A DNA stretch of 32,222 nucleotides from an archaeon (GTDB lineage: Archaea > Nanobdellota > Nanobdellia > Pacearchaeales > GW2011-AR1): positions 1 to 32,222 of the forward strand of contig DAOWDJ010000015.1 in assembly GCA_030639065.1 (NCBI GenBank), in the 5' to 3' direction. Below are positions 3,265-31,916 of this stretch, piece by piece. The translations under genes were made by a program, and so were the position numbers. The notes beneath the pieces were generated by a model. The model was not told the DNA's origin, searched no databases, and was given only the letters and a program-made list of their open reading frames with translations. Position 1 is the stretch's first letter. Every line of letters begins with the position of its first letter.

Positions 3265-3368
3265 AAGCCACATCTAGGGATCTACTCACAAAATACACTT
3301 CGAAAAAATATCTAAAAAATTAATTTTTCTCGAGGTGTTTTGCTCGCCCGGGACTGTCCCGAGTTTGA
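3265..3368 (-). repeat. tRNA-Thr 3' cassette: inverted T-arm copy, plus duplicated tRNA 3' third with a 64-nt hairpin insert in the T-loop
   Basis: 3265-3282 matches 3368-3385 at 17/18 nt. 3356-3368 is an inverted copy of 3384-3396. 3347-3354 is a direct copy of the variable loop/T-stem. The insert at 3283-3346 is a hairpin. Confidence 0.85.
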
Positions 3369-3443
3369 AGCCACATCTGGGGATCAAACCCAGGACCTCG
3401 TCATTACCAATGACGCGCTCTATCAAAACTGAGCTAATGCGGC
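3369..3443 (-). tRNA. tRNA-Thr (GGT)
   Basis: Cloverleaf: acceptor GCCGCAT/ATGTGGC, anticodon arm CGTCA-TTGGTAA-TGACG, T-arm CTGGG-TTTGATC-CCCAG; no encoded CCA. Confidence 0.95.
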
Positions 3444-3492
3444 ATATTTTTTTATCTCCCCGTAAATTTATAAATGCTACCATCACACTTAA

Positions 3493-3975
3493 ATGATGGA
3501 AAATGATGAGTTTGATTTAGAATCGGCATACAACAAATTAAAGACGGAATATGATTTACCTGAATTTGAAAAAATATCTGAAGATTTTGATGTTGAAAAA
3601 AACATAGACAAAGAACCTGTTTTTTTAATGAGAGACATTCGACGAATTATTGTAGAAAAAACTTCTGCATACCTCCAATTATTTGAAACTTTAATTAATC
3701 CAAATTCTCCACCTATGTTTGTGTTTTCAATTTTAAGAAATGTATCCACGGAAGACAAAGATACTATAAAAGAAATTTATAAAATACTGTCTAGAATACA
3801 GATTGAGGCTATGAAGCTAGACATTATCTATAAGGAAGATGCTGAGGCGAAATTTATTGTTGAGACTTTTAATGTGTGGCAAAAATCAAAACTTACAATT
3901 TACAAACTTATAGAAAAATTTGAGATGAATTTTGAAAGCGATGATACCTCAAAGAAACGAAGTTATTTTGCCTGA
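3493..3975 (+). CDS. Hypothetical protein
   Basis: 160-aa ORF with protein-like composition and TATA box (TTTATAAA) about 20-25 nt upstream; convergent overlap with pheT. Confidence 0.8.
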   Translation: MMENDEFDLESAYNKLKTEYDLPEFEKISEDFDVEKNIDKEPVFLMRDIRRIIVEKTSAYLQLFETLINPNSPPMFVFSILRNVSTEDKDTIKEIYKILSRIQIEAMKLDIIYKEDAEAKFIVETFNVWQKSKLTIYKLIEKFEMNFESDDTSKKRSYFA

Positions 3976-5624
3976 TTTAAAAAATCTGTTTCAATTTCTA
4001 GTGCTACCATTGGCATTTTTATTTTCCAATTTTTTAAAACTCTTGGTGCAACTTCCCCTATAAAACCAATATCTTTATCATTAACTATAATCTTCCCGCA
4101 TCTTCCAATAATGTAATTTGAATTTTCTACCGCTTCTATAGAATATTTTGTATTTAACATCTTAAATAAATAATCTAATATCTGTTTTAATTCTGTAAAA
4201 TTAACTTTTTCGTCGATTAGAGAGATGGCCAACCTCTCATTTTCATGTACCCCAACTTCCGAATCTTCAGATAAATCTCTAGAGAAAACTTGTCCCATTT
4301 CAAAAATCTTTTGTGGATAGGCTGCGTCTGAGTTTTCTGATGATATTTGTAGTAAGTTGGTTAGTATGTCCATCCTCAAAATGTTTCTTTCTGTTTTTGA
4401 TTCTTCAACCTCTATAAAATCATTAAAATCATAGTGCATCTTTTTTATGTTTTTCTTTGTGGTTAGATGAAATGAAGATGTTTCCAATAGTCCAAGTCCA
4501 GCTAAAATGTTTCCTATTAATCTTTTTGTTTTATCTACTGGATCTTCGTGAGCGATTGTTGAGATGTCTGGAATTTCTGGTACAAAATTTTCATAGCCAT
4601 ATGCGATTGCGACTTCCTCTGCTAAATCAATCCAATGTAATATGTCTGATCTGTAAGCTGGAATTAGGGCTATCGATTTTCCTTTTTTATTTTCATAACC
4701 AATGCCCATCTGTGCTAAATAATTTTTAATATCCTTTTCGTTCAAATCTATTCCAAGTGTTTTCTCTATATTTTTGATACTAAATGCCAATCTTTCTGTC
4801 GACATATCTGGCGAAATAAAACTTCCATCTTTTCCGTCTTTAATATTCATTGCATAAACTTTTCCTCCCATCTCTGAGATTGAAGCTACAATAATGTTTA
4901 AACATTTTTTTAAATACACCAAATTGTGTCCTGAACATTCAATAAATACCTCTTTAGTATTACAACTAATTCGTCCGGTCTTCTCTGAATTGATAATTGG
5001 CGGCATACTTAACACTTCATTATCAGCGTCGATAAAAACGGGAAATATCCCTTCGTCTTTAAGTAAATCTCCATATTCTCTACCTGCTGGATGTCCTCGC
5101 AAGATTTGTCTACCGGTCATTTCTCTTGTAGATTCCAGAGGTTTAAACTTGATATTGTCTGGATTCCTACCGACAAATCTTATAGGTAATTTAATTTTAT
5201 CTAGTGGGTAAATTCCGATAGCTATCTTCTTACGCTTCCTCCCAATTGAATTATGGAGTTTTTCTTGAACATCAACAATTTCTTTAATTTTCTCATCATT
5301 AAATTTTAACCCTTTAATAATTGTGCAAACCGTATGCGGACGCACAGCTTTTACTGATTTATCTATAATCACAGCATAATTTTTTTCTGGTTTATTTATT
5401 CTGAATTCTGCTATTCTCGTTCTTTTGTTAAATTGATTAACTGCTCTTGCAAAATTTCCCATTGATAATAAATCTGGTCTATTTGGAAAAACCTCTACCG
5501 AAACTTCAGAATCTGTCACTTCTTCAATTGGGGTTCCCATATCAGTTATTTTTTTTTCTAACTCTGCCGTAATCTTCCCTATTTTTTTCTCAAGTTCTTT
5601 TCTATTTAGTGTTAGTATTGTCAT
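3963..5624 (-). CDS. pheT: Phenylalanyl-tRNA synthetase beta subunit (archaeal type)
   Basis: PNRPDLLS, B3/4 domain (QEKLH...GRKRKK, SMPPIINS), PAYRSDILHWIDLAEEVAIAYGY; follows pheS. Confidence 0.97.
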   Translation of the reverse strand: MTILTLNRKELEKKIGKITAELEKKITDMGTPIEEVTDSEVSVEVFPNRPDLLSMGNFARAVNQFNKRTRIAEFRINKPEKNYAVIIDKSVKAVRPHTVCTIIKGLKFNDEKIKEIVDVQEKLHNSIGRKRKKIAIGIYPLDKIKLPIRFVGRNPDNIKFKPLESTREMTGRQILRGHPAGREYGDLLKDEGIFPVFIDADNEVLSMPPIINSEKTGRISCNTKEVFIECSGHNLVYLKKCLNIIVASISEMGGKVYAMNIKDGKDGSFISPDMSTERLAFSIKNIEKTLGIDLNEKDIKNYLAQMGIGYENKKGKSIALIPAYRSDILHWIDLAEEVAIAYGYENFVPEIPDISTIAHEDPVDKTKRLIGNILAGLGLLETSSFHLTTKKNIKKMHYDFNDFIEVEESKTERNILRMDILTNLLQISSENSDAAYPQKIFEMGQVFSRDLSEDSEVGVHENERLAISLIDEKVNFTELKQILDYLFKMLNTKYSIEAVENSNYIIGRCGKIIVNDKDIGFIGEVAPRVLKNWKIKMPMVALEIETDFLNQAK

Positions 5625-7172
5625 TTATTTTCTCCAGAATTTCATCTCTCTCAATTTATTTAAATCGTTTTTATATACTTCTCGTAAATCATTAATTTCG
5701 AAAAACTCTGTGATAATTCTGTCAAAACCCTGTCCCCATGCTAGGACGGGAATATGTTTTCCAAACATCGGAATTGTAACTTCTGGTCTAAACATCCCAG
5801 CGCCACCGAGCTCAACCCATTTCTTATGAACCGGGTGAAAAATATCTATTTCTAGTGATGGCTCTGTATATGCAAAATATGCCGGCCTGATTCTAATCTT
5901 TTCGAATCCCATCTTCTTATAAAACTGAGTTAGGTATCCAAGTAGTTGTCTGAAATTTGCATTCTCGTCAATTACTATTCCTTCAGTTTGATTAAATTCA
6001 AATCCGTGTGACCAATCAACTGTCTCGTTTCTAAAACATTTCCCGAGGGCAAAATATTTTGCGGGGAATTCTTTTGATTTTCCTATTTCCTGAAGTTTTC
6101 TAACAGAGAGAGAAGTTGTATGAGTTCTAAGTAATACTCTTTTCGCATCTTCCTCCTCCCATTTATATTGCCATCCTTTGCTCTCGTCGATTCCCCCTTC
6201 ATGCGCTCTTTGAACATTAAACAACACACAATTTTCTTTTTTCTTACATCGAGCTGGCAACTTTCCCATCATTCCTTTCAGATAAAAAGTATCCTGCATT
6301 TCTCGAACAGGATGATCTTGCGCTGTAAATAAACTATCAAAAACCCAAAATCCAGTTTCTACGATATTCCCTGTCATTTCTTTAAATCCCATTTCCAACC
6401 AGATTGATTTTGCATAATCTTTTGCTTGATTTACAAAATGTCTTTTCCCTCCATACACCCTTGGAGCTGGTGATGTTAAATCATATCTACGAAATTTTTT
6501 CCCTTTCCAAGAATTTTGTTTTAAAATTTTAGAAATGAAAGCTGCGTGTGAATTTTTATTTATATTCATTCCAACAATCTTCTTACCTAATTCTGTTAGC
6601 TTAATTTTTATTGTTTTTTGCTCTTCTACCTCAATAATATCTTTTCGTTTTTTTAAGTTCTCAAATGCTAATTTGTCTAAGTCGATAATCGATTCTAAGT
6701 CCATCGGCAACTTCTCTAGAAAGATTTCTTCAATCATCTTATTTGTTATTTCTTCCGATTTTGCGTTTAAATTAATTTTTCCTTGCCTAATCTCAACTAA
6801 TGCTTTTTTCTTTAGTGTCCCTAGCGCAATTTTGGCTTCATTATCATTTAGATTGCAAACATTTTTAATTTCCCCAATTGGAATTATTTTTTTTTCAGCC
6901 AATTTATTCAGTAATGTTCGCTCGGGTAATTCTTTCTTTAGATAATTAATTCCCAGGATTCCTAAAATAACAACTTTTTTTTCTGAAGATTCTTGTTCAA
7001 CTAACTTTTTATTTTTCAAAAATCCCGTGGCTCTCAAAATTGTGGTTTTATCTAAATTTATTTTGTCTGAAAAATCTTTGATGTCTGAAAAATCTTCGTT
7101 TAATTTTGGGAGAACTTCCCTTTCCATAGGGGATAGGGATTCAATAATTAATTCTTCGTCCATAATAATCAA
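5625..7172 (-). CDS. pheS: Phenylalanyl-tRNA synthetase alpha subunit (archaeal type)
   Basis: QDHPVREMQDTFY, LLRTHTTS, FRNETVDWSHGFEFNQTEG, AYTEPS, ELGGAGMFRPEV. Confidence 0.98.
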   Translation of the reverse strand: MIIMDEELIIESLSPMEREVLPKLNEDFSDIKDFSDKINLDKTTILRATGFLKNKKLVEQESSEKKVVILGILGINYLKKELPERTLLNKLAEKKIIPIGEIKNVCNLNDNEAKIALGTLKKKALVEIRQGKINLNAKSEEITNKMIEEIFLEKLPMDLESIIDLDKLAFENLKKRKDIIEVEEQKTIKIKLTELGKKIVGMNINKNSHAAFISKILKQNSWKGKKFRRYDLTSPAPRVYGGKRHFVNQAKDYAKSIWLEMGFKEMTGNIVETGFWVFDSLFTAQDHPVREMQDTFYLKGMMGKLPARCKKKENCVLFNVQRAHEGGIDESKGWQYKWEEEDAKRVLLRTHTTSLSVRKLQEIGKSKEFPAKYFALGKCFRNETVDWSHGFEFNQTEGIVIDENANFRQLLGYLTQFYKKMGFEKIRIRPAYFAYTEPSLEIDIFHPVHKKWVELGGAGMFRPEVTIPMFGKHIPVLAWGQGFDRIITEFFEINDLREVYKNDLNKLREMKFWRK

Positions 7173-7201
7173 TAACTTAGAGCTTTTTAAGTTTTAGTAA
7201 A

Positions 7202-7810
7202 TTACAAAATTTTCAAGGCCAAAAGAATACCAATTATAATTATTATCACTCCACCAATTCTCTCTGGGTGTTTGAAACTTTTCAATCTATCGGAAAGAGA
7301 ATGAGCAATTATCAATGAAACAAATGTCGCAATCATAACACCACTACAAATAGCTATCCATGAACCTTTTACCATTATCAAATTTGAATAGGCGAGAATA
7401 TCATCAATTCCCGTCGCGAAAAAAAGTATCATTCCAATTCCAACAAATTTCAAGTTACCTATTCTTGTCAAAGGTTCTTTATCTATATGTTTCTTCATTC
7501 TTGTGAAATGTATTTTCTTCTGATGTTGCGTCCCCTTCCCGTGAGTAAAAGATAATAATCCAAGCGTGATCAGAACTGCGCCGCTTATCAAATGCCTAGA
7601 AGGGATTGCTTCCATTAACGACCCGGCTAGGACTGCGATTGTTAGCGCAATGATTGTTCCTATAATTATCCCTAAAGAAATTAATCTTTTGTGATCTTTT
7701 TTCCTGTTGTCTAAATATGAACCAGCATAAGCCACTGTGTCGTCGATTCCTGTCGCGAAAAATGCAACAAACCCAATAACTAAAAGTATAAACGTACCTA
7801 TCAACTCCAT
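7202..7810 (-). CDS. Cadmium-resistance transporter (CadD)-like, LysE superfamily
   Basis: Internally duplicated FFATGIDD motif and about 6 TM helices. Confidence 0.7.
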   Translation of the reverse strand: MELIGTFILLVIGFVAFFATGIDDTVAYAGSYLDNRKKDHKRLISLGIIIGTIIALTIAVLAGSLMEAIPSRHLISGAVLITLGLLSFTHGKGTQHQKKIHFTRMKKHIDKEPLTRIGNLKFVGIGMILFFATGIDDILAYSNLIMVKGSWIAICSGVMIATFVSLIIAHSLSDRLKSFKHPERIGGVIIIIIGILLALKIL

Positions 7811-7840
7811 ACAAAATGAAAAGCTATTTTCTTTTTAAAT

Positions 7841-8401
7841 TTATGTTTTTATAACCTTACTAACTTGCTGACTAGACATTCCTAAGCTTGCGCCAAATGA
7901 CACTCTACTTTTCTCATCTATAATATTATTTTTATTATTCGCTAAACTTACAATTTTAATATCACATTTAGCTTTTCTGCAAATTTTTACATTTTGAATT
8001 AACCTTTCTAATCTTCTAACCTTTTCTACGCTAGTTAGTTTAGCAATATCGGACATGCTAATAATGATTGTAATGTTTCGCTTGGCTGCCTCTTTGGCAA
8101 CGACATGATTAATGCCCGAATCTCTCTGTTTTAAATTATTATTCTTTGGCTTAATCTCTGGAGAAACTAAATAATTAATTCGTAAAGTTTCAATTGCTCT
8201 ACGATTAAATGCATCGTCCCCACCTTCTATGGCAATTTTTTTCCCAGAACCTTTTAGGGATTCTATAATTCTTCTAGCTTCTTTTTCAGATGAACTAATT
8301 AAAAATCCATCACACTCTTTATCCTTGGAAACCTCTGCTTTAGATTTCACCTTCTTTAAGAAAATTGAATCTTTAGTTCGAAATAAGTTTATGTCTTTCA
8401 T
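7841..8401 (-). CDS. rnp3: Ribonuclease P protein component 3 (Rpp30)
   Basis: GGDDAFNRRAIE, RDSGINHVVAKEAAKRNI, NVKICRK motifs typical of archaeal Rpp30. Confidence 0.85.
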   Translation of the reverse strand: MKDINLFRTKDSIFLKKVKSKAEVSKDKECDGFLISSSEKEARRIIESLKGSGKKIAIEGGDDAFNRRAIETLRINYLVSPEIKPKNNNLKQRDSGINHVVAKEAAKRNITIIISMSDIAKLTSVEKVRRLERLIQNVKICRKAKCDIKIVSLANNKNNIIDEKSRVSFGASLGMSSQQVSKVIKT

Positions 8402-9078
8402 TCACTGATTAAAGTTCCTATAAACTTTTTGTTTTTTAAGATTTTATCAATTGCCCCAAGTGACCCTACAAGATAAGTTGTAATTTTTTTATCTTGAATT
8501 GTCTTTGCTGCGGACTGGTCCAAAACAAAATGCTGCCCCGCTTTATATTTTACTTTTTTGGCAATTTCAATAAAATCTTTCCATGTTATTTTAGAGATAA
8601 ATTTTGCTTTTTTATTTTTAGTAGGATCTGAACTATAAAGTCCCTTAACATTCGTTAAATTGATAAATGGACATTGTAAGTATGATGCAATTTTTGCGGC
8701 GGTTCCATCTGAGGTATTTTTTCGACGATACCTTAATGCTCCACAGAAAACAACTCTATTTTTTGCCAATAAGTTTTTAACTTTTTTCATATTGGTAGGA
8801 ATCTCTTCGTTTGTAATTTTGCCAAAAAACCTTGCCATAAATTCAGCGTGTAATCTTGTAATAGCAATACCTTCCTTTGATTGTGCCTTTGTTTTTTTTC
8901 CTAATTTCTTTAAGGCTAAAATATATTTTCTAGCTGTTGAACCCCCTCCTGTTACTACTACAAATCTCTGTGATTTATGTGAACTAATTAATTGTTTAAA
9001 TTTTAATAAAAATTTATCGTCAACTTCTCCTGGAATAATTCTAGAGCCACCAAGACTAATCACCCATGTGTTTTTCAT
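8398..9078 (-). CDS. pyrH: UMP kinase
   Basis: VISLGGS, VVVTGGGSTARKY, TNVKGLYSSDP, AGQHFVLD. Confidence 0.95.
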   Translation of the reverse strand: MKNTWVISLGGSRIIPGEVDDKFLLKFKQLISSHKSQRFVVVTGGGSTARKYILALKKLGKKTKAQSKEGIAITRLHAEFMARFFGKITNEEIPTNMKKVKNLLAKNRVVFCGALRYRRKNTSDGTAAKIASYLQCPFINLTNVKGLYSSDPTKNKKAKFISKITWKDFIEIAKKVKYKAGQHFVLDQSAAKTIQDKKITTYLVGSLGAIDKILKNKKFIGTLISE

Positions 9079-9116
9079 ATATCGAAGAGAAGAATATGGC
9101 TTATATATATTGCGGA

Positions 9117-9398
9117 TTAACAGACTGTAAATAATTTATTATCGTGTACGTCGAATATCTTTAAACGAACTCCGGAATCTAGCCAACCGTGTGCGTAATT
9201 TAAAGCTGCAAAAGCATTTACCCAATCATCTTTGCTTTTAAAATGATGAGCATCTGAAACATAATTCTCAACCATGTCAATGATTTCTTTTGATTCTGTT
9301 TCTTTCCCTTTAATAATATTTTTTTTTACTTCAACCAACGCCTTTTCTGTTAGGTTAAAATATTTCTCTAATTTTGCTGAACTAATTTTATTATCCAT
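9117..9398 (-). CDS. DUF357 family protein
   Basis: YVSDAHHF...DWVNAFAALNYAHGWLDSG signature. Confidence 0.9.
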   Translation of the reverse strand: MDNKISSAKLEKYFNLTEKALVEVKKNIIKGKETESKEIIDMVENYVSDAHHFKSKDDWVNAFAALNYAHGWLDSGVRLKIFDVHDNKLFTVC

Positions 9399-9404
9399 GT
9401 TAAT

Positions 9405-10103
9405 CTATTTTATAGTTCCCATATTAGGTGCTGCATGTGTTGCCTGTTTTTTAATTATAAATCTTGAGCCAATCATCTCGGAAATCACTGCATTAATTGA
9501 AAAATTATCAACGGCTGCCCGGAATACCCCTTCGAGTAGTGGGATGTGGACAGCGTCGGAAACTTTATCTAATATTTCTTTAATATCTTTATCACTTAGT
9601 ACAATCCTTGTTAGCTGCTTCTGCCCGATACGGATAACCATTATCGGTTTTCCTACGCCCTGACATTCGATTACAGATATTGATGGATCATTCAATAGTG
9701 GGGTAATCTTACCATAACCTTGACTTGGTCCTGCCTGTGTTCCTGGCGGCGCTGCTGGCGGTACGATTTGAGGAGCCGGAGTTACTCTTTGGGGAATAAG
9801 AGTGGTTTTTTGAGGAATCGATGAAGGTAATGGGGGGCGTGTAATCTTAGGTTTAATCGTAGCCATTTTTGGAATGATTTCTTTTTTATCCATTATTGAC
9901 TGGGTGCTATTAATTGGAGCTCCTCTTCTCTCTCCCAATGATGCATGCATAACTTTTCTAGAAACTTTTGGGACTAAATCTGAATGAATAATTTGCTTGT
10001 TTTCATAATTAAAATTTTTTGCACGAATGTTTTGAATGATTGCAAATACAAATTTTTGAATAAAGGGTTCCTCCGCTATACTAGAAATTGCTTTAGAATT
10101 CAT
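9405..10103 (-). CDS. Hypothetical protein: Pro-rich linker plus the N-terminal domain of type II/IV secretion ATPases, with no ATPase domain
   Basis: GYGKITPLLNDPSISVIECQGVGKPIMV resembles the FlaI/TadA N-domain; no Walker A motif. Confidence 0.65.
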   Translation of the reverse strand: MNSKAISSIAEEPFIQKFVFAIIQNIRAKNFNYENKQIIHSDLVPKVSRKVMHASLGERRGAPINSTQSIMDKKEIIPKMATIKPKITRPPLPSSIPQKTTLIPQRVTPAPQIVPPAAPPGTQAGPSQGYGKITPLLNDPSISVIECQGVGKPIMVIRIGQKQLTRIVLSDKDIKEILDKVSDAVHIPLLEGVFRAAVDNFSINAVISEMIGSRFIIKKQATHAAPNMGTIK

Positions 10104-10558: not shown

Positions 10559-10599
10559 GTTAGAGCTAAGATAAACTTATTTATAAAAGTATTGGGGAT

Positions 10600-10716
10600 A
10601 TGGGCGCGGCAGGAATCGCCTTCGTGTCACAAGGACACTCGGAACGGAAATTAAAATTTCCTAAAGAAAAAGCTAGTTTGTAATTTTCCTTAAACCCCAA
10701 GGGGTTCGATTAAGGA
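10600..10716 (-). repeat. tRNA-Trp 3' cassette: inverted T-arm copy, plus duplicated tRNA 3' end with a 74-nt insert
   Basis: 10600-10618 is identical to 10716-10734 (19 nt). 10699-10711 is an inverted T-arm copy. 10693-10698 is a direct T-stem copy. The insert at 10619-10692 has two hairpins. Confidence 0.85.
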
Positions 10717-10803
10717 TGGGCGCGGCAGGAATCGAACCCACTTCTTCCGGGGTCTCCGAGTAAATTTTTGGAGCCGGACATTCTACCACTATACTACGCA
10801 CCC
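10717..10803 (-). tRNA. tRNA-Trp (CCA) with 16-nt intron at 37/38 (intron 10752-10767)
   Basis: Acceptor GGGTGCG/CGCGCCC and anticodon stem TCCGG/CCGGA. Intron GGAG pairs with CTCC (positions 32-35), followed by a 3-nt bulge (relaxed BHB/BHL). T-arm GTGGG-TTCGATT-CCTGC. Confidence 0.9.
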
Positions 10804-11267
10804 ACATTATGCACTTCCCTATGACAATTAGCGCATAATAATATACATTTCTTCACTTCTTTTAAAGCCTTCTCTTTTGATTTATTCTTAATGATATGAG
10901 CAATATTATCTTCCTTATCCCCCAAGTGATGAAACTCCAGTGCAGATACACATTTGTTATAACCGCATCTAGAACATTTCCCGCCTAGGACATTTATCAA
11001 ATCAATTTTTATTTTCTTTAGCCGTTTTATTTTGGTGTTGTAAATTTCTACCCTATTTTTTTCATAATACCGTTTATCAACAATATTTCTATGTTCTTTA
11101 TTTTTAGGTTTATTGGCTGGTGCTTGGCCTCTTGATAGCCCAAGTCTTGCAGCCTTCTGTTTTATGGAACGAACACTTCTGTTTAAATAAGCTCCAAGTT
11201 CTTCTAGGCTATTATAGGAATTATAATTTTTCTTTAATTCTTCCACATCCTTACTTGTCCATTCCAT
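10794..11267 (-). CDS. HNH endonuclease with N-terminal Myb-like HTH and zinc-binding CxxC pairs
   Basis: WTSKDVEELKKNY...RSVRSIKQKAARLGL; CSRCGY...LEFHH...LLCANCHREVH; the stop codon lies inside tRNA-Trp. Confidence 0.88.
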   Translation of the reverse strand: MEWTSKDVEELKKNYNSYNSLEELGAYLNRSVRSIKQKAARLGLSRGQAPANKPKNKEHRNIVDKRYYEKNRVEIYNTKIKRLKKIKIDLINVLGGKCSRCGYNKCVSALEFHHLGDKEDNIAHIIKNKSKEKALKEVKKCILLCANCHREVHNVGA

Positions 11268-11335
11268 ATTATCTATTAAGAAATAAGTTATTTAAATGCT
11301 CGTACCCTTAGGAAAGTTATGGAGCCAATCAAAAA

Positions 11336-12567: not shown

Positions 12568-12617
12568 ATTTAGTCAAATAACTAAACTTATATAAATCTT
12601 CCTTAACTTTTAATAAG

Positions 12618-13001: not shown

Positions 13002-13037
13002 CACAACCTTTTTAAATCAAATTTTTCTCACTAGAAT

Positions 13038-19701: not shown

Positions 19702-19941
19702 AAAGTTTTTGAACATATTTAATCACAAAATGCATTTCACAAAACTATAGAATTTAGATTGTTTTTTCTCGAAGCGTTTTGCTCACACCGACCATCTGCG
19801 GTTTGATGTCCTAAAAACAACGCTTTTGAGAGGACTCTACTCAAACTTCACTCTGAAATTTTTCTAATCACTTCGTTGAGAAAAATTCGAGCAAAGGTTT
19901 TCGCCTCCGACTTGTCTGCGGTTCGACGTCCTAGAAAGCTA
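19702..19941 (-). repeat. Two tandem tRNA-Asn 3' cassettes of about 120 bp each, carrying different 66-nt inserts
   Basis: 19820-19837 is identical to 19941-19958. Inverted T-arm copies lie at 19913-19932 and 19794-19812. Inserts lie at 19838-19903 and 19720-19785. Confidence 0.88.
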
Positions 19942-20014
19942 CGCTTTTGAGAGGACTCGAACCTCCGACATCACGGTTAACAGCCGTGCGCTCTACCTAC
20001 TGAGCTACAAAAGC
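19942..20014 (-). tRNA. tRNA-Asn (GTT)
   Basis: Acceptor GCTTTTG/CAAAAGC, anticodon arm CACGG-CTGTTAA-CCGTG, T-arm GGAGG-TTCGAGT-CCTCT. Confidence 0.96.
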
Positions 20015-21099: not shown

Positions 21100-21171
21100 G
21101 ACGGTTGTAGTTCAATGGTAGAATGTACGGTTGTGGTCCGTGAGACGCGAGTTCGATTCTCGCCTTCCGTC
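21100..21171 (+). tRNA. tRNA-His (GTG), with encoded G-1 and C73
   Basis: Anticodon arm TACGG-TTGTGGT-CCGTG and T-arm GCGAG-TTCGATT-CTCGC; the acceptor stem has two U-U mismatches. Confidence 0.88.
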
Positions 21172-21331
21172 TATTTTCTTTTTTCTTCTGTGATTTTAAC
21201 AGAAAAATAACCCTTATGTACGCTAGTACACTACGGAACATTTTTCAATGAAAATCTCTCGAATTAAAAAGAAAATGTTAGCTTTTGTTATTTTTAGGAA
21301 ATGATATAAAGGCTTTTTTGCTTATTCTGTA

Positions 21332-22495: not shown

Positions 22496-22496
22496 A

Positions 22497-23510: not shown

Positions 23511-23511
23511 A

Positions 23512-25166: not shown

Positions 25167-25167
25167 T

Positions 25168-25587
25168 TTATTTTATATCTCCTTTTTCGATTAAGAATTG
25201 TGTGTAGGGAGAAACTTTGTGTTTCCATTTGTCTATGTCTTTCAAGTCAAGCCAAATTATTTCCTTTGTTTCATCCGTAGTCTTTATCTTTCCTTTATTT
25301 TTTAGTTTTGCCAAATAGCTTGTAAGAATTATCGCCATTTTTTCTTTTGTGTGAGGGTTCTCCCATAATACCTTTGGGCTAAGTGGCTTCATGATATCTA
25401 TTTCTCCATTAATTTCCTCTTTTACTTCTCTTTTGCATGCTCCCTCCAAATTTTCCTTTTCTTCTAAGGTTCCTCCAGGAAGTTTATAAAATTCATCATC
25501 TCCTTCTTTAACTGTCAACAATTTTCCGTTCTCGATTATTATTGGACCCGAGACAACGATATATTTTCCTTCCATTATTTTTTCCAA
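25168..25587 (-). CDS. NUDIX hydrolase
   Basis: Nudix box PGGTLEEKENLEGACKREVKEE. Confidence 0.92.
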   Translation of the reverse strand: MEKIMEGKYIVVSGPIIIENGKLLTVKEGDDEFYKLPGGTLEEKENLEGACKREVKEEINGEIDIMKPLSPKVLWENPHTKEKMAIILTSYLAKLKNKGKIKTTDETKEIIWLDLKDIDKWKHKVSPYTQFLIEKGDIK

Positions 25588-25835
25588 GCCCCCTTTTCAG
25601 CTATTATAAAATCGTCTTCAACAAAAGGCGCATTCAAAAGCGTCAAGTCTCTAAAATCTGGGTCAGTATTCCATCCATCTCCTTCTTCTCTGACTCCTTC
25701 TCCATTTTCAAAATGTGCTTCTGTAGTTTTTATTTTGGATAACTTAGATGAAAATTCGTTCAAGAGGTTTTTAGATTCTTTTCTAATTTTTTCTTTTTCT
25801 TTCTCGCTGACTTCGTGCCAAAGTGAATTACTCAT
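25575..25835 (-). CDS. gatC: Asp/Glu-tRNA amidotransferase subunit C (divergent)
   Basis: GVREEG...LLNAPFVEDDFI resembles the GatC C-terminus; lies upstream of gatA. Confidence 0.7.
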   Translation of the reverse strand: MSNSLWHEVSEKEKEKIRKESKNLLNEFSSKLSKIKTTEAHFENGEGVREEGDGWNTDPDFRDLTLLNAPFVEDDFIIAEKGAWKK

Positions 25836-25920
25836 ACTAAAAATAGTTCGATAAGGTTTATAAAATTGATGATATAGTTTTTGTAGTAAAGTTTAAAAGA
25901 TTTATATCTCATTATCGCAC

Positions 25921-26355
25921 ATGATTAATTTTAATGAAAGATTTGAAAAAACTAGAAAGACAGTAATTCCTACCAATTGTATAGGTAGTGCCCTTTATTA
26001 TTCTGGTAAAAGAGATATCGATAGATTTTGCCCAAGTGATCATTTTTATCCTAAGTATTTTAATGATTTAGTGAAGATTGAAGATTTTGAAAAGGGATGT
26101 TTTGTTGCTTGGGAGTCTAGAAGAAAAGAATCCGGGAAAGATCCATTTCCTTGGTCTAAAGTAAACGAGGAAGAAAGATATTTGCATCATTTAGCCGTAG
26201 TTTCTTCTATTAATCCTCCAGCTTTAATTCATCGTCCAGGTGCCTGGGTTGAAGATTTCGGTAACGCTTATGCAAAAAGAGGGTCACTGGAAGATGTTGA
26301 TAAAGGATACCACGGAGAAGATGTAGGGCTTGTTCTTTATAATTGGAAAAAATAA
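25921..26355 (+). CDS. Hypothetical protein, possible papain-like Cys-His fold
   Basis: TNCIGSAL ... HHLAVV ... LIHRPG. Confidence 0.6.
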   Translation: MINFNERFEKTRKTVIPTNCIGSALYYSGKRDIDRFCPSDHFYPKYFNDLVKIEDFEKGCFVAWESRRKESGKDPFPWSKVNEEERYLHHLAVVSSINPPALIHRPGAWVEDFGNAYAKRGSLEDVDKGYHGEDVGLVLYNWKK

Positions 26356-26416
26356 TTTATTTTCATTTAATTATTATGATACTATAAGCTTATAAAATTG
26401 GGGTTGTTATGTTTAT

Positions 26417-26767
26417 ATGGAAGAGTGCGTGTTTTGTAAGATTATTGTGGGAGAGATACCAAGCGAGAAGGTTTTTGAGAATGATAGTTTTATTGTGATT
26501 TTGGATATTAATCCAATTTCGGAAGGACATGTGTTGATTATCCCCAAGGAACATTATGAAACTATTTTAGATATGCCAGATGAATTGGGAACTGCACTTG
26601 TTGGCTTGGTTAAAAAAATTGGTGGAGATTGGATCAGCCAAAAGAATAGCAACGGATTTAATTTAATTCAAAGTAATTTTAAAGCGGCACAACAAGAAAT
26701 TCCACATTTGCATTTTCATATTATACCAAGAAGTGAGGATGATGGTTTAAAGTTGAAATTTAAATAA
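26417..26767 (+). CDS. HIT family hydrolase
   Basis: CVFCKI, GHVLIIPKEH, HLHFHIIPR. Confidence 0.96.
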   Translation: MEECVFCKIIVGEIPSEKVFENDSFIVILDINPISEGHVLIIPKEHYETILDMPDELGTALVGLVKKIGGDWISQKNSNGFNLIQSNFKAAQQEIPHLHFHIIPRSEDDGLKLKFK

Positions 26768-26828
26768 ACAATAGAATTTAAATAGGTGAATGGTTAATAA
26801 AATGAATAAAAAGAGGAGGATATTCAAA

Positions 26829-26933
26829 ATGAAAAAGTTTTTTCAAAAATTGTTCGGGAAAAAAGAAGAAGTGGAAGCAGAAGCAGAGATAAAAGAAGAA
26901 GTGGTAGAAGTGAAAGCAAAGAAAAAGAAGTGA
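26829..26933 (+). CDS. Small protein (34 aa) with N-terminal amphipathic helix
   Basis: GAGGAGG SD upstream; MKKFFQKLFGKKEEVEAEAEIKEEVVEVKAKKKK; below the ORF-track size cutoff. Confidence 0.55.
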   Translation: MKKFFQKLFGKKEEVEAEAEIKEEVVEVKAKKKK

Positions 26934-27051
26934 GGCTATATTGAGTAGCTTCAATAAAAAGAGATTATTATATTTTTTTTTAGAGGATAGTTTTAGGTAG
27001 GAGTAATGTGTGATGTTTGGAAATAAATTTAAAAATTTATTGAGATAAGTT

Positions 27052-28449
27052 TTACTTTTTAGAAGTAGTTTTTTCTTGTTTGGGTAAATCCAATTTGATG
27101 TGAATATCTTTGAGTTGTTTGTCAGAAACTGAACTTGGCGCATCCGTCATTAGATCCCGAGCTTCTTTGTTTTTTGGAAACGCAATTGTTTCTCGAATTG
27201 ATTCTGCATTTAATACGGCTTGTACTAATCTATCTAGTCCCCATGCAATTCCACCATGAGGTGGTGCTCCAAATTTCAAAGCATCTAGTAAGAATCCGAA
27301 TTTATCTTTCTGTTCTTTTTCGTCAATTCCTAGAACTTCGAAAACTTTTGCCTGAATATCTGCTTCATGGATTCTAATTGATCCTCCTCCTATCTCTGTT
27401 CCATTCAATACAATATCGTATGCTATAGCTTTAGCAGTTTGTGGATTTTTGGTAAAACTTTCCATTTCTGGGTGTGTAAAAGGATGGTGAACCGCTGTAT
27501 ATTTCCCGTGCTCTTTTGAATATTCAAACGATGGAAAATCTGTCACCCAGCAAAATGCATATTCATTAGGATTATTTTTATCTTTTCTTAAATCCGGTCT
27601 ATCAATTCCATATTTTTTCATAGATTCATCGTAGGTTATTCTTTGAAATGGTGTTTTTATATCCACATTTAAAATTTCTTTCCATATTTTTTGAAGTAAT
27701 TTTTCTGTTAAATTAATTACATCGTCTTGTGAAACAAAAGACATCTCAATATCTAGTTGTGTAAATTCTGGTTGTCTATCGCTTCGAAGATCCTCATCTC
27801 TCATGCATCGTGCAATTTGAAAATATTTTTCAAAGCCTGCAACCATCAGAAGTTGTTTAAATAATTGGGGAGATTGTGGAAGCGCAAAGAATTTTCCTGG
27901 TTGTGTTCTTGAAGGAACTACATAATCTCGTGCTCCTTCTGGAGTTGATTTGGCAAGCATCGGAGTTTCGAATTCGTTAAACCCTTCTTCAAATAAAAAA
28001 TCTCTAATTAGCTTAATTATTTTTCCTCTGAGAAGTAAATTCTTTTGCATCAATGGTCTTCGAAGATCTAGGTATCTATATTTTAATCTAATGTCTTCCC
28101 CAACTTCTTCGTTATCAATATCGAATGGAAGCACTGGACATCTTGTGTATATCTCTAATTCTTCGATTTTAATTTCAACATTTCCTGCAGGAGAATTTTT
28201 ATTTTGTGTCCCCTCCGGCCTAGGTTTTACTTCTCCCTTAATTCTAATACAGGATTCTTTGGAAAGAGATTTTGCGATTTTGAAATTGATTTCATCTTTT
28301 GCTGTTGTAATTGTCTGAACTGTGCCGGTGATGTCTCTAGCCTCTATGAAAATTAATTTCCCGTGTTCCCTGATTGTATCTACCCACCCTTTGATATCAA
28401 CGTTCTTTCCTTCCATCGAGGATAAATCTTTAATCATAATTCTTCCCAT
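27052..28449 (-). CDS. aspS: Aspartyl-tRNA synthetase, bacterial type lacking the GAD insertion
   Basis: RLKYRYLDLRR, STPEGARDY, ALPQSPQLFKQLLM, DRQPEFTQLDIEMSF, GAPPHGGIAWGLDRL. Confidence 0.96.
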   Translation of the reverse strand: MGRIMIKDLSSMEGKNVDIKGWVDTIREHGKLIFIEARDITGTVQTITTAKDEINFKIAKSLSKESCIRIKGEVKPRPEGTQNKNSPAGNVEIKIEELEIYTRCPVLPFDIDNEEVGEDIRLKYRYLDLRRPLMQKNLLLRGKIIKLIRDFLFEEGFNEFETPMLAKSTPEGARDYVVPSRTQPGKFFALPQSPQLFKQLLMVAGFEKYFQIARCMRDEDLRSDRQPEFTQLDIEMSFVSQDDVINLTEKLLQKIWKEILNVDIKTPFQRITYDESMKKYGIDRPDLRKDKNNPNEYAFCWVTDFPSFEYSKEHGKYTAVHHPFTHPEMESFTKNPQTAKAIAYDIVLNGTEIGGGSIRIHEADIQAKVFEVLGIDEKEQKDKFGFLLDALKFGAPPHGGIAWGLDRLVQAVLNAESIRETIAFPKNKEARDLMTDAPSSVSDKQLKDIHIKLDLPKQEKTTSKK

Positions 28450-28522
28450 TCCTTTTTATATAAATCCTGCTTTAAAAGAATTGCGGGGATAGTTTTTTAA
28501 ATTAAATTTTGTTGTTTTTCTT

Positions 28523-28756
28523 ATGGATGCCAATGATTTAGAAAGTGCGATTAACTCTGCAAAAAAGTCAAACGATGTAAATGAGAAGATTGAATCATCT
28601 GAAATGTCTAGTGATCAAGAAATTGGTTTTCACAAGGGTGCATTAAATACGCTTATTGCCGAGAGAACCGAATTGGTTAAAATTATAGGAAATATAGAGG
28701 GGATCATGCAGGCACATATTAAAAGATTGAAAGATCTGGGAGTGGATATAAAATGA
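28523..28756 (+). CDS. Hypothetical protein
   Basis: 77-aa helical ORF with an upstream TATA-like sequence. Confidence 0.75.
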   Translation: MDANDLESAINSAKKSNDVNEKIESSEMSSDQEIGFHKGALNTLIAERTELVKIIGNIEGIMQAHIKRLKDLGVDIK

Positions 28757-28914
28757 ATGTAAAAAAAAGATGTGTAATTATTTCTGGACTTGGTGCTGGT
28801 ACTGGTGGTGCATTGGGTGCCGTTAGTGGTTCAAATAGTTGGATCGTTGTAACTATCGTTTCTGCTGTATTTGCAGTTTTGATGGCTTGGGGATTTGATG
28901 GAATAGTTAAGTAA
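28753..28914 (+). CDS. Small glycine-zipper membrane protein (53 aa)
   Basis: ATGA overlap with the upstream gene; MNVKKRCVIISGLGAGTGGALGAVSGSNSWIVVTIVSAVFAVLMAWGFDGIVK. Confidence 0.65.
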   Translation: MNVKKRCVIISGLGAGTGGALGAVSGSNSWIVVTIVSAVFAVLMAWGFDGIVK

Positions 28915-28946
28915 AAGAATAAATAGGCTGCAACTGTTTGATTAAG

Positions 28947-29882
28947 ATGATAGGAAAAATAATTTTGGTGATATTTATGTTGATTTTATTAGCATTTTCT
29001 TTAATGTTTATGTATCAAAATATCCCGCAGGACCCTATTGAAATGAAAATGGATCGTATTTTTCCTGAACAGATTACCATTATTCCTTATGGAACTACTC
29101 CCGTGTTTGTTGAAAATTTGAGATTTAACCATAATAATATTTCTTATTTTATAGAGAAAGAATGTGCTGGCGTCAGGGAAGATGCGATGCTAGAGGCATT
29201 TAATATTTTTGAAAATAAAATGGATCTGATATCGTTTTATGAAGTTAAAAATAAAACTGAAGCGGATATCAACGTCGGATGTTCGGATAATTATATCGAG
29301 CTTGGTGAAAATTTGTTTGTGGCTGGAGAGGGTGGTCCTTCGAGGATAGTCAATACTAGTATATTTAAATTAATTGAAAAAGGAAAAATTTCTTTATACA
29401 ATGATCCACAATGTAATTACCCTGTTGTTGAATTGCATGAGCTGTTACATGTTTTTGGATTTGATCATTCGGATAACCCCAAGAGTATCATGTATAATAT
29501 GTCAAAATGTGATCAGAGAATCACTAGTGACATGATCGAATTGATTGATAAGTTATATTCTATTGAACCGTTGGCAGATGCCTTAATAAGTGAGCTAACG
29601 GCTGTTAAGAAAGGAAAGTACTTAGATTTTAATATTACTATTTTAAATGAAGGGCTTGTTGGAATTGATGCGATTAATTTGGCTATTATGGTAGGGGATA
29701 AGGAAGTTTATTTGGTTGATTTAGATGAACTTGGTGTTGGATATGGCCGAACGCTAAAGGTAACTAATGTTAAGTTGCTATCGAGAAATGTGGAAAAAGT
29801 AGATTTTGTTTTGGATCCTGAAAATATTATTAGAGAAATTAATGAAGAAAATAATTTTATACAAATGAGCGTTTCGGTTTAA
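28947..29882 (+). CDS. Membrane-anchored matrixin-like zinc metalloprotease with C-terminal CARDB-like domain
   Basis: N-terminal TM helix, HELLHVFGFDH zinc motif, Met-turn SIMY, DPENIIREINEENN; ATG start chosen over TTG at 28938. Confidence 0.88.
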   Translation: MIGKIILVIFMLILLAFSLMFMYQNIPQDPIEMKMDRIFPEQITIIPYGTTPVFVENLRFNHNNISYFIEKECAGVREDAMLEAFNIFENKMDLISFYEVKNKTEADINVGCSDNYIELGENLFVAGEGGPSRIVNTSIFKLIEKGKISLYNDPQCNYPVVELHELLHVFGFDHSDNPKSIMYNMSKCDQRITSDMIELIDKLYSIEPLADALISELTAVKKGKYLDFNITILNEGLVGIDAINLAIMVGDKEVYLVDLDELGVGYGRTLKVTNVKLLSRNVEKVDFVLDPENIIREINEENNFIQMSVSV

Positions 29883-29916
29883 TAAAATTTAAAAGGTTGT
29901 TCTGGATAAAATATTA

Positions 29917-31803
29917 ATGGAAATTGAGGAATTAAAAAGAGATGACTCTCTAGACTATGTTAAAATTTTGAGGGCATTAATGGAATTGCCATTTCAGGTC
30001 GGGAGAAATCTGTTGGTAGATTTTCTAAATGGAGATTATGGGAATAAATCAGTTACAAAAAATAGACTAGATGAGTTAGATAATTTTGGGAAACTACTTT
30101 GGGGCAAAGACAAAATATTCAGAAAGATAGATGAATTGGTGACTAATGGGTTTATTGAGTTGGTGACTAGCGACTATAATAAATTTGTAAAGGTTTTATC
30201 GTTGACAATTAGGGGCCGAAACGAAATCGTGAACCCGACTTTATCTGAAAAAAAACTGGCAAACAAAATTGAATTTAAAAAAACAGAGATTAGCAATGAA
30301 GATCGTAAAAGGTTTGAGGGACTAAATGGGTTCTTGGACCATTTTAATGATGAGCAAAAAAAGGCAGTTATTTCGGAAAATTCAAATATACTTTGTGTTG
30401 CTGGTGCAGGATCTGGAAAGACTATGGTTTTAACTAAGAGAATTGAATTTTTAGTAAAATATAAGGGGGTTGATGTCTCCAAAATTTTAGCTATTACATT
30501 TACTAGAAAGGCTAGGCAGGAAATGGAAAAGCGGCTTCTTGAGCTGGGTATTAAGGGTGTTGTAATTCATACTTTTAATTCGTTTTGTGAAAGAATTTTA
30601 AGAATACACGGGGCTGAAATTTATGGCCGAACGATTCGAGTACAAGGATATGGGGATAAAATTCTCGCGATAAATATGGCTTTAGCGTCGATGGGTTTAA
30701 ACATAGAGGAGGTTGTGAGTAATTATTTTACATCGTCTCAGAAAAAATTTAAAAATAAAGGTCAGCTTACAAACAGTTTTATGAATGATTGTTTTTCGGT
30801 AATGGATTATTTTAAAGTAACTGGAGATGAGTACGATTTCAGTAGGAATGTCGACGAGAAAGAAAAAGATAATGCTCGGAGAATTTATCAGATTACTCAA
30901 TATCTAAAAGAGCATATGAAAACGCAAGGGCTTAGAGACTACACTGATCAAATTATTGATACGATTAAATTTTTCAAAGCTAGTCCCAATAGCATACCTT
31001 CGTTCGATCATGTTCTAGTTGATGAATATCAAGATGTAAACGCTATGCAAATTGAGCTGATTGAATTATTAGCTTCTCCAAACTTGTTTGTCGTCGGAGA
31101 TCCTCGACAGTCCATTTTCGGATGGAGAGGTTCTGATATAGGTTATATTTTGGATTTTGAAAAAACTCATACTAATGTTGACTTAATTCATCTAACTAAA
31201 AATTATCGGAGCGCTAAGGAGATTGTTAAGTTTATGAACCATTCGATCAGTGATATGGGTTTGCCTGATTTGGAACATCATAATGAATTTAGAAATGTTG
31301 AAATTAGGATTTTGGATTTTGAGGGTGAGAAAGCTGAGCAGGAGTTTGTTATAGGGAATATTCTTAATTCAGATGTAGCGAACGAGGATATTTTTGTTTT
31401 GGCTAGAACGAATAGGCAGCTAATGGAATTGTCGCAATCTATGAATGCAAGAGGGATTCCTCATCTTGTGAGGGCAGATATGGGAGTTGGAAAAGGTGAT
31501 AATGAGGGAATCAAAGAAGGAAAAGTTACGCTTGCTAGTGTTCATGCAATTAAAGGATTAGAGACAAAAAAAGTTTTTGTAATTGGAGCTAATGAACAGA
31601 ATTTTCCTTGTAAGGCAAGTGACCATCCTGCAATTGAAATGATAAAAGATGATGATTATAATAAAGAAGAAGAAGAAAGACGATTATTTTACGTGGCAAT
31701 TTCGAGGGCAAAAGAAATTCTGTATGTAACTTATTCCGGGAAGAAACCGACTCATTTTATCAGTGACGAAATGAAACAGATGAATGTCGGCGCTACAAGA
31801 TAG
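29917..31803 (+). CDS. UvrD/REP-family SF1 helicase with N-terminal RQC-like winged-helix domain
   Basis: AGAGSGKT, LAITFT, VDEYQD, VGDPRQSIFGWRG, NYRS, EERRLFYVAISRAK; N-terminus resembles the RecQ RQC domain. Confidence 0.92.
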   Translation: MEIEELKRDDSLDYVKILRALMELPFQVGRNLLVDFLNGDYGNKSVTKNRLDELDNFGKLLWGKDKIFRKIDELVTNGFIELVTSDYNKFVKVLSLTIRGRNEIVNPTLSEKKLANKIEFKKTEISNEDRKRFEGLNGFLDHFNDEQKKAVISENSNILCVAGAGSGKTMVLTKRIEFLVKYKGVDVSKILAITFTRKARQEMEKRLLELGIKGVVIHTFNSFCERILRIHGAEIYGRTIRVQGYGDKILAINMALASMGLNIEEVVSNYFTSSQKKFKNKGQLTNSFMNDCFSVMDYFKVTGDEYDFSRNVDEKEKDNARRIYQITQYLKEHMKTQGLRDYTDQIIDTIKFFKASPNSIPSFDHVLVDEYQDVNAMQIELIELLASPNLFVVGDPRQSIFGWRGSDIGYILDFEKTHTNVDLIHLTKNYRSAKEIVKFMNHSISDMGLPDLEHHNEFRNVEIRILDFEGEKAEQEFVIGNILNSDVANEDIFVLARTNRQLMELSQSMNARGIPHLVRADMGVGKGDNEGIKEGKVTLASVHAIKGLETKKVFVIGANEQNFPCKASDHPAIEMIKDDDYNKEEEERRLFYVAISRAKEILYVTYSGKKPTHFISDEMKQMNVGATR

Positions 31804-31842
31804 ATTTATGAGTGATGCCATTTAGGGGGTTCAAATCATGAG

Positions 31843-31916
31843 TGAGGCTGGTAGGATTTGAACCTACGACCCCCGCCTTATCAGAGCGATGCGCTACCTG
31901 ACTGCGCCACAGCCTC
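31843..31916 (-). tRNA. tRNA-Ile (GAT)
   Basis: Acceptor GAGGCTG/CAGCCTC, anticodon arm TCGCT-CTGATAA-GGCGG, T-arm GTAGG-TTCAAAT-CCTAC. Confidence 0.95.

Follow-up and report, generated by a model that had tools for sequence, protein, structure and literature searches.

The stretch of DNA analysed here (the window, 32,222 nt) is an entire 32.2-kb contig, C5, of a 29-contig, 462.7-kb assembly (∼33% G+C; estimated to be 69% complete), the metagenome-assembled genome (MAG) of a DPANN-type archaeon. We label this genome G000 and its relatives G002, G017 and so on, and give L numbers to fetched loci and metagenome contigs. In the window, ARAGORN and Rfam find genes for tRNA-Thr(GGU), tRNA-Trp(CCA) with a 16-nt intron, tRNA-Asn, tRNA-His and tRNA-Ile. 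No CCA is encoded by the tRNA genes of this genome. Beside several of these lies a compound insert, here called a cassette, in which a hairpin repeat is enclosed by copies of the neighbouring tRNA gene's own sequence. Read on the tRNA strand, the order is the intact tRNA, a spacer of 0–9 nt, an inverted copy of tRNA positions ∼45–60, a further 0–3 nt, a direct copy of positions 45–53, the hairpin part and a copy of positions 57–73. This second, partial tRNA copy thus lacks positions 54–56. The hairpin part is 64–66 nt long at Thr and Asn, and at Trp is an 83-nt multi-hairpin repeat.

The Thr, Asn and Trp cassette strings quoted in an earlier, sequence-only reading of this DNA were all found where it had placed them, on the minus strand. 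The intact tRNA-Thr(GGU) gene (3369–3443, minus strand; ARAGORN, and Rfam tRNA at 58.5 bits) is followed on the same strand by an inverted copy of its own positions ∼46–58 with 2 transitions (3356–3368), a direct copy of the variable loop and T-stem 5′ strand with 1 mismatch (3347–3354), a 64-nt hairpin of family A′ (3283–3346) and a copy of positions 57–73 that is 16/17 identical (3266–3282). At tRNA-Trp(CCA), in which the intron follows position 37 (10717–10803, minus strand; Rfam and ARAGORN), the minus-strand cassette comprises an inverted copy of the T-stem 5′ strand and T-loop (10701–10711), a multi-hairpin repeat of family B (10618–10700), which is also found at a Gly tRNA on contig C16 and at a tRNA on contig C9, and a copy of positions 57–73 (10601–10617), after which comes the flank that lies directly 3′ of the tRNA at empty orthologous sites.

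The intact tRNA-Asn(GUU) gene (19942–20014, minus strand; ARAGORN and Rfam) is accompanied by what had been described as one cassette and proves to be two in tandem, both on the minus strand. Cassette 1 has an inverted copy of positions ∼45–65, the T-stem part of which is unlike the present tRNA (19914–19932), a direct copy of 45–53 (19904–19911), a 66-nt hairpin of family A (19838–19903) and an exact copy of positions 57–73 (19821–19837). Cassette 2 (19720–19812 overall) has an inverted copy (19794–19812), a degenerate direct copy (19785–19792) and a hairpin of family A′ (19720–19784), and ends without a 3′-end copy. The intact tRNA-Ile(GAU) gene (31843–31916, minus strand; ARAGORN and Rfam) carries, as had been noticed, a vestige: a 10-nt inverted copy of T-stem and T-loop sequence and nothing more (31828–31837, minus strand). 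The tRNA-His gene (21101–21171, plus strand; Rfam) has no cassette and provides an internal negative.

Two details of the expected architecture needed correction. The inverted copy of the tRNA's own variable loop and T-arm is present as described, though imperfect: of the mismatches counted across 30 distinct cassettes, 59 lie on T-stem positions 49–53, as against 8 on positions 46–48 and 12 on positions 54–58. Similarly, the string GGGGTT, previously taken as the Trp cassette's own direct copy, does occur, but it is part of a left end common to Trp, Gly and the contig C9 locus; since it mismatches the Gly tRNA, it is not clearly templated.

The first point to note from the genome as a whole is that the arrangement is frequent. 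A copy of the tRNA's own last 16 nt (at most 2 mismatches, within 350 nt downstream) follows 10 of the 30 tRNAs of G000, at a distance of 64–108 nt, and shuffling the trailers 200 times gave none (mean 0, maximum 0); the 3′ ends of other tRNAs gave matches in 6 of 870 cross-pairs. Within their first 70 nt, 11 of the 30 trailers contain the variable loop and T-arm of their own tRNA in inverted copy (local score of at least 18; shuffles: mean 0.045, maximum 1), and the T-arms of other tRNAs matched in 34 of 870 cross-pairs. The recurrent mirror cassette 3′ of several tRNAs is thus real and far wider than had been noted (10/30 tRNAs against 0 in 200 shuffles), and the suspicion that its matches might be no better than those of shuffled trailers is not borne out.

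By our count, ∼16 of the 30 tRNA genes of G000 are touched when full cassettes are taken together with partial or upstream forms, which are found at Arg-CCU, Ser-GGA, Ile, Arg-UCG, Val and Ser-AGA. The Arg-CCU cassette is cut off at a contig end, and that at Ser-GGA has its A′ hairpin reversed and its 3′ copy diverged. The Arg-UCG locus (contig C6:12188–12500) has an upstream pseudo-copy, complete with duplicated promoter, in which a family-A hairpin occupies the canonical intron place, 37/38; 3′ of the intact gene lies a truncated cassette consisting of the anticodon arm in inverted and in direct copy. At Val, Gln-UUG and Ser-AGA the cassettes lie upstream: a copy of positions 1–15 is there followed by a family-E hairpin of 23 nt and by positions ∼6–13 in inverted copy.

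Family E also has a wider distribution in G000. A scan allowing up to 4 mismatches returned 11 copies, and the copy on C10 was seen separately; together they lie at C7:851, C10:∼1418, C15:2597, C8:9938, C9:11689, C12:5076, C18:4725, C19:1300 and 1346, C24:14215, C27:525 and C29:5734. Their flanks consist of a duplicated target, which ends in TAA, and the inverted copy of that target. Upstream of three tRNAs the repeat stands in the D-loop place of the partial copy; at protein genes it is found within TATA-box-like sequences or at start codons, in some cases as tandem copies, and with the same layout of X, hairpin, inverted X and X.

We next consider how closely the hairpins are tied to tRNA genes. 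The family-A pattern matched 59 stretches in the species-representative genome collection, from 22 assemblies as counted by accession prefix, and 83 stretches in metagenome contigs. It matched none in viral contigs, and neither it nor the Asn cassette had a phage or plasmid match. Among the 69 distinct hairpins from the genome set, 45 have a tRNA upstream on the same strand, 7 have another arrangement and 17 gave no tRNA call; the remaining 24 were all read by eye and lie in arrays of 3′ copies, at contig ends or in pseudo-copies 5′ of an intact tRNA, with tRNA-derived flanks. The 74 distinct metagenome hairpins divide similarly into 52 with a same-strand tRNA upstream, 8 in another arrangement and 14 without a tRNA call, and the 8 internal cases of this last class, which were read by eye, all show repeated tRNA 3′ ends. 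In every context read, family A is flanked by tRNA-derived sequence, and more than 20 tRNA species, by anticodon, are represented among its cassettes. In G000 (the genome scanned for this purpose, 69% complete), family-A half-sites with at most 1 mismatch occur exclusively as pairs, at four known loci.

The distribution points to one lineage. By our reading, the hairpin part of the Asn query matched 15 of 24 genus genomes, and in 16 genomes of other families it gave a single weak 24-nt match. In other families of the order, a small sample of 13 tRNA genes, mostly tRNA-Asn, at 9 loci in 8 genomes showed no exact 11-mer copy of the 3′ end within 230 nt. With cassettes at many tRNAs and in 22 assemblies, the notion that the architecture might be absent from other tRNAs and from relatives fails. 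The feature is real, recurrent and lineage-wide, and no artefact. Our best reading of the hairpins is that they are confined to a single DPANN genus, in which they form several families (A, A′, B and others), and that they are non-autonomous repeats of a type resembling MITEs (miniature inverted-repeat transposable elements) or repetitive extragenic palindromes (REPs).

One metagenome contig shows a variant arrangement. At L116:9605–9860, the body of a tRNA-Thr(GGU) with an 18-nt anticodon-loop insert is joined directly to a hairpin-bearing T-arm copy, which is followed by a second cassette, and no intact T-loop copy is in view. This could be a simple insertion, or the result of a deletion between two 8-nt direct copies.

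Comparison of orthologous loci, which the sequence-only reading had proposed, revealed both empty and filled states at Trp and at Asn. At the Trp locus, two relatives have a conserved flank immediately 3′ of the tRNA. In the window, with family B, and in G002, with family A, the same flank comes after the duplicated 3′ end, and so the block comprising spacer, inverted copy, direct copy, hairpin and 3′ copy is extra DNA: a block bearing target-derived sequence on both strands has been inserted. Two different repeat families have entered the same Trp site. Among 17 Asn loci of relatives for which downstream sequence exists, cassettes with an A or A′ hairpin occupy 5 (two in tandem at one of them), other inserts occupy 3 and 8 are empty; one further locus has a hairpin-less footprint, in which inverted and direct pieces are fused to the 3′ copy.

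Where cassettes form arrays, the decay is polar: the tRNA-proximal 3′ copy is identical to the tRNA, and those farther out have been shortened or have diverged. The acceptor sequence in the distal Asn 3′ copy of G023 is that of another Asn allele, found in G017 and G019. At three loci, the last 3′ copy is again followed by spacer and inverted copy, ending no more than 2 nt from the palindrome centre.

The point of insertion and the extent of the copies follow simple rules. The T-loop, where insertion had been placed, is the commonest site, but the hairpin also occurs in reverse orientation and at other tRNA positions. Wherever it lies, the family-A direct copy is ∼8–9 nt (positions 45–53, 53–60, 39–46 or 29–37), and the 3′ copy spans the distance from insertion point to tRNA end (17–18, 10–11 or 23 nt). 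When the sequence after the tRNA was compared with that after its copy, identity ended 0–2 nt past the annotated 3′ end in 21 of 32 pairs, which is not obviously explained by a purely DNA-level process; in 6 of the 32 pairs identity extends for at least 16 nt, and these are arrays or cases of repeated spacer and inverted copy. At Ser-GGA in G000, and likewise at two Met loci, the hairpin is reversed within an unchanged layout, and it is found in upstream pseudo-copies of Tyr, Phe, Glu and Arg tRNAs.

The family-A consensus, derived from 61 aligned copies, is a hairpin of 17 pairs with a nearly invariant stem and variable loops. Three wobble pairs are conserved (U-G in 59/61, G-U in 60/61 and G-U in 53/61), and compensatory changes occur at four pairs, of which the outermost predicted pair is C-G in 29 copies and A-U in 28, the other three being near the loop. 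The conserved hairpin is strand-specific. The calculated folding energy of the Asn cassette is −34.6 kcal/mol on the tRNA strand against −25.6 on the other, and that of the Thr cassette is −26.9 against −21.4 kcal/mol; the family-B repeat at Trp shows no folding difference between strands. Conserved wobble pairs together with the strand bias lead us to read the element as single-stranded with one polarity, be it RNA or DNA. The 5′ arm of the hairpin contains a run of four or five T.

Several structural identities for the hairpin were considered and rejected by eye. As a bulge-helix-bulge its 3′-side unpaired stretch is too long, as a K-turn the tandem G-A pairs at its base have the wrong polarity, and as a C/D or H/ACA RNA it offers no conserved box motifs, because the loops vary between copies. 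A core-type recombinase site in the palindrome of inverted and direct copies was also rejected, the half-sites being wrongly oriented relative to the T-arm. Rfam returned tRNA alone, whether the window was scanned at gathering score or three cassette-rich loci were scanned at E up to 1.

With a little better than even confidence, we read the cassettes as insertional hairpin repeats with repair-derived target copies; the details of the repair path are much less certain. Hairpins would enter the loop-coding places of tRNA genes, mostly replacing T-loop positions 54–56. After a break in such a place, or at the 3′ border, one end might regain the full tRNA by copying an intact template, while the other end would retain the hairpin, copy ∼8 nt of the target, switch strand by snap-back over 14–19 nt across the insertion point and be joined. 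Such a strand switch during repair would yield the spacer-less palindrome, the inverted piece and the duplicated end. The outcome that survives would be an intact tRNA copy beside a hairpin-bearing partial copy, placed head-to-head via the short inverted copy. The hairpin might be carried in by a trans-acting enzyme, or be copied from another cassette by template switching at the conserved nucleotides G53 and R57-A58, its neighbours in nearly all T-loop cassettes, and arrays could arise from later unequal exchange. The DNA-level signs include the occurrence of either hairpin orientation, the promoter duplication at Arg-UCG and the presence of family E in promoters of protein genes. This reading shares much with the earlier suggestion of a non-autonomous miniature element that copies whichever tRNA it enters, which fits the empty and filled sites, the two families at Trp, the tandem arrays and the more than 20 tRNA species; the fold-back synthesis that went with it is suggested, rather than demonstrated, by the spacer-less palindrome.

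Some observations weigh against this reading. The duplicated segment has no fixed length, unlike the target duplication of a transposase. An RNA template or a defined cut is hinted at by the way the copy stops where the tRNA ends. The clustering of inverted-copy mismatches in the T-stem is not predicted by simple copying; it may reflect selection against pairing strong enough to misfold the precursor or to cause cruciform extrusion. An inverted-copy quirk at Asn is common to different species, and such tRNA-specific quirks mean that descent, and not fresh insertion, accounts for part of the pattern. Lastly, in G000 and/or the 41 genus genomes searched, there is no transposase, integrase, Cas1, HNH or reverse transcriptase (RT) family that tracks the hairpins and could be nominated as the mobilising enzyme.

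The enzyme search can be summarised by family. The co-occurrence with HNH, HUH/TnpA or RT genes that the sequence-only reading had thought worth seeking was not seen for any of these families among the 41 genus genomes. Y1 transposase (PF01797) is present in 8 of the 41, TnpB (PF07282) in 5–7, with 5 over its cut-off, and Cas1 (PF01867) is present in 1, with none of the three in G000. RVT_1 is found in 15 of the 41, in open reading frames (ORFs) of ∼300–600 aa, and is likewise missing from G000 (69% complete). The statement that no integrase gene is visible is true of the ∼100-nt inserts, but the genome elsewhere contains one Phage_integrase match, its only one, on contig C23. In G002, a Y1 transposase ORF (contig C11:5228–5575) lies ∼1.5 kb from that genome's cassette-bearing tRNA-Asn, a proximity that may be coincidence.

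An HNH-motif ORF of 157 aa (CxxC...HH...CxxCH; 10794–11267, minus strand) overlaps the 5′ end of tRNA-Trp in the window, and homologues are present in 14 of the 41 genus genomes. At 9 of the 11 fetched loci of relatives (L102–L112), ARAGORN calls a tRNA within a few hundred bases, and tRNA sequence was recognised by eye at the other two; the tRNAs concerned are Trp, Arg/Leu and Met. From its motif and surroundings, this looks like a free-standing homing-endonuclease family that resides beside tRNA genes. It could be a source of the breaks, which we offer as a lead only, drawing no link to the cassettes.

Other origins for the cassettes must be weighed against the same data. Direct repeats of the tRNA 3′ segment flank the insert, as at integrase attachment (att) sites, and this would follow if tiny tRNA-specific circles or fragments, made up of direct copy, hairpin, 3′ copy, spacer and inverted copy, recombined with the tRNA 3′ segment in the manner of Campbell integration, by a tyrosine recombinase such as the host's Xer-type enzyme or by homologous recombination after DNA uptake from relatives, so that the 3′ copy was att-like and every tRNA had an element lineage to itself. 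The foreign acceptor allele in the distal Asn copy of G023 and the three loci at which spacer and inverted copy are repeated up to the palindrome centre, as for a circular unit, are consistent with it, and the genome does have a Phage_integrase gene. We nevertheless consider this route unlikely. The insert is ∼100 nt and gene-less, the repeat length of 10–23 nt varies with hairpin position, and no viral contig, phage or plasmid matches. Moreover, the same hairpin families occur with tRNA-specific flanks at more than 20 tRNA species, so that a de novo copying step would still be needed. The ends of the copies invite a second proposal, namely that an RT copied hairpin RNA and tRNA fragments with template jumps, the cDNA being fixed at the tRNA locus, or that the tRNA transcript served as a repair template. 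Copies that end at the tRNA 3′ end (0–2 nt past it in 21/32 pairs), and upstream copies that start at about the 5′ end and run to position 15, correspond to the ends of tRNA transcripts or loop-cleaved fragments; the conserved wobble pairs are RNA-like, short untemplated spacers lie at the joints, and RVT_1 genes are present in 15 of 41 genus genomes. Doubt is cast on an RNA-mediated origin, to which we give a small chance, by the lack of an RT in G000 (69% complete) and by the lack of CCA after the copies. Moreover, archaea of this sort mostly carry RTs of the diversity-generating type. The Arg-UCG promoter duplication and the family E copies in promoters also stand against it, and a single snap-back cDNA cannot give both an inverted copy with an intact T-loop complement and an adjoining direct copy with the hairpin.

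The strand specificity and conservation of the hairpin could also be explained if the block were co-transcribed with the tRNA as a functional trailer RNA, acting as a folding switch, a decoy or a guide RNA composed of the hairpin scaffold and a 17-nt 3′ tail that repeats the tRNA end exactly. Most copies are sense to the tRNA (45/69 and 52/74), no T-run intervenes between tRNA and cassette at the Thr, Asn and Trp loci of the window, and the inverted copy is retained yet weakened exactly where T-stem pairing would be strongest. However, orthologous tRNAs do without a cassette, distal copies decay, some lack the 3′ copy, reversed hairpins occur in the same layout, the run of four or five T in the 5′ arm may stop archaeal transcription, and there is no Rfam match at E up to 1, all of which make a trailer RNA of this kind very unlikely. 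The particular form of it put forward in the sequence-only reading, a trailer through which the pre-tRNA would refold and acquire an alternative 3′ end, is not supported: without positions 54–56 the copy cannot form a T-loop, distal 3′ copies decay or retain another allele, the hairpin is found in both orientations and in upstream pseudo-copies, and its 5′ arm contains the T-run. In a related scheme of a self-propagating, tRNA-templated system, which we regard as a long shot, a transcript of the hairpin with its 17-nt tail (positions 57–73) would guide a nuclease or recombinase to the tRNA 3′ border, and units would be added beside a tRNA left intact, with the oldest outermost, as in a CRISPR array; the tail sequence is preceded in the genome by the universal GTTC only at the real tRNA. 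Finally, there may be no present mobility, the cassettes being old tandem partial tRNA duplications through which a repeat once spread, and which are now subject to vertical inheritance, gene conversion and deletion. Asn cassettes of different species do share the same inverted-copy deviation, and the direct copies are identical to the tRNA while the inverted copy diverges, as if only direct repeats were homogenised. Different hairpin families at the same Trp site, clean empty sites that keep an identical flank, the 8 empty Asn loci among 17 and a stem nearly invariant across 61 copies from many genomes all speak against this, and we find a purely inherited origin improbable.

Turning back to the reading of the cassettes as insertional hairpin repeats with repair-derived target copies, we compared them with systems already described. 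MITEs, REPs and bacterial interspersed mosaic elements, IS200/IS605-derived palindromes and mitochondrial hairpin elements are, like the cassette hairpins, short (∼65 nt in our case), multi-copy, non-coding and near-palindromic, with conserved ends, presence or absence among relatives and several families per genome. Hairpin elements of the mitochondrial kind have been reported from sponges (PMC2800124). Unlike all of this group, the cassette hairpins are tRNA-flanked in all contexts read and are accompanied by direct and inverted target copies. The palindromic body (a 17-pair hairpin, 61 copies) is shared with MITEs, but the fixed short target duplication is not, the copies here being 10–11, 17–18 or 23 nt, always reaching the tRNA end and coming with an inverted copy. 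IS200/IS605-derived palindromes and the REPs mobilised by REP-associated tyrosine transposases share the strand-specific imperfect hairpin; they insert without duplication beside a fixed word, whereas the cassettes show duplication, an inverted copy and several positions, and Y1 transposase is present in 8 of 41 genus genomes and absent from G000, as against 15 of 24 for the hairpin.

Integrase att sites at tRNAs share with the cassettes a direct repeat of the 3′ segment at both ends of the insert. They involve a recombinase and one target tRNA per element, in contrast to gene-less inserts of ∼100 nt at at least 20 anticodons. Casposons insert at tRNA 3′ ends with a ∼14–15 bp target duplication; they are large and encode Cas1 and a polymerase, whereas Cas1 is missing from G000 and present in 1 of 41 genus genomes, and the cassette duplication differs in being 10–23 nt with an inverted copy. 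In eukaryotes, templated insertions made by snap-back or loop-out synthesis during microhomology-mediated end joining (MMEJ) consist of short direct and reverse-complement copies beside the break. The cassettes likewise show both kinds of copy, with 0–3 nt between them, and we know of no description of MMEJ insertions as a recurrent architecture tied to a repeat family and to tRNA genes.

In Thermoproteales, tRNA introns transpose, related short sequences being found at different positions of different tRNAs, including the loops, and they are spliced at bulge-helix-bulge motifs. Such introns lie inside a working gene, unlike the window cassettes, in which the interrupted copy stands beside an intact tRNA at all loci; L116 is an exception. 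No bulge-helix-bulge motif could be drawn by hand at the cassettes. The comparison with TnpB/IscB-type guide RNAs is limited to a scaffold which here is a single ∼65-nt hairpin, and TnpB is absent from G000. The closest published idea that we found is the integration-driven model from Caldiarchaeum, in which a tRNA gene is disrupted by an integrating 1.8-kb recombinase-encoding element at one tRNA (PMC3293823). A tRNA fragment left beside an intact gene after insertion of foreign DNA is common to both, as is direct repetition of the 3′ segment, whereas the cassettes are gene-less, ∼100 nt long and found at more than 20 tRNA species, copy their target in inverted form as well, and have a hairpin where the fragment's T-loop would be.

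We found no description of such cassettes in the full-text literature, a search that did not cover subscription journals and supplements. The cassettes act like a MITE- or REP-type hairpin repeat and leave an att-like direct repeat, yet they fall short of each of these kinds on defining features: a fixed-length duplication and a transposase or integrase are missing, the targets are many and the target is also copied in inverted form.

The setting of the window offers some further context. Around its tRNAs, a Pfam scan of ten proteins found nothing beyond housekeeping families, among them a histidyl-tRNA synthetase, a UvrD-type helicase, a glycosyltransferase, a nitroreductase and a major facilitator superfamily transporter. 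The same hairpin repeat occurs in public MAG records labelled archaeon, Nanoarchaeota, Pacearchaeota or Woesearchaeota, and the sequencing runs that contain window DNA are cold-seep and marine-sediment metagenomes. Elsewhere in G000, the tRNA-Glu(CUC) gene (contig C1:2304–2465) has an 87-nt intron with C-box- and D-box-like words, and its orthologues in relatives have introns of 86–104 nt at the same position.

These results have practical and biological consequences. For annotation, a partial copy can be mistaken for a tRNA fragment, a split tRNA or an att site, and such copies break assemblies at tRNA loci, many of them being at contig ends. Known tRNA-integrating elements carry their own recombinase and copy only a direct 3′ repeat. 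Here, a gene-less hairpin of ∼65 nt is present at about half of the tRNA loci of a genome of less than 1 Mb, each time wrapped in sequence of its own target taken from both strands. Should such copying belong to the insertion reaction itself, it would give the repeat a way into an essential single-copy gene without killing the host. If this is true, the cassettes would further preserve, in natural genomes, the traces of strand-switch repair in archaea, a group in which little is known of the pathways of end joining.

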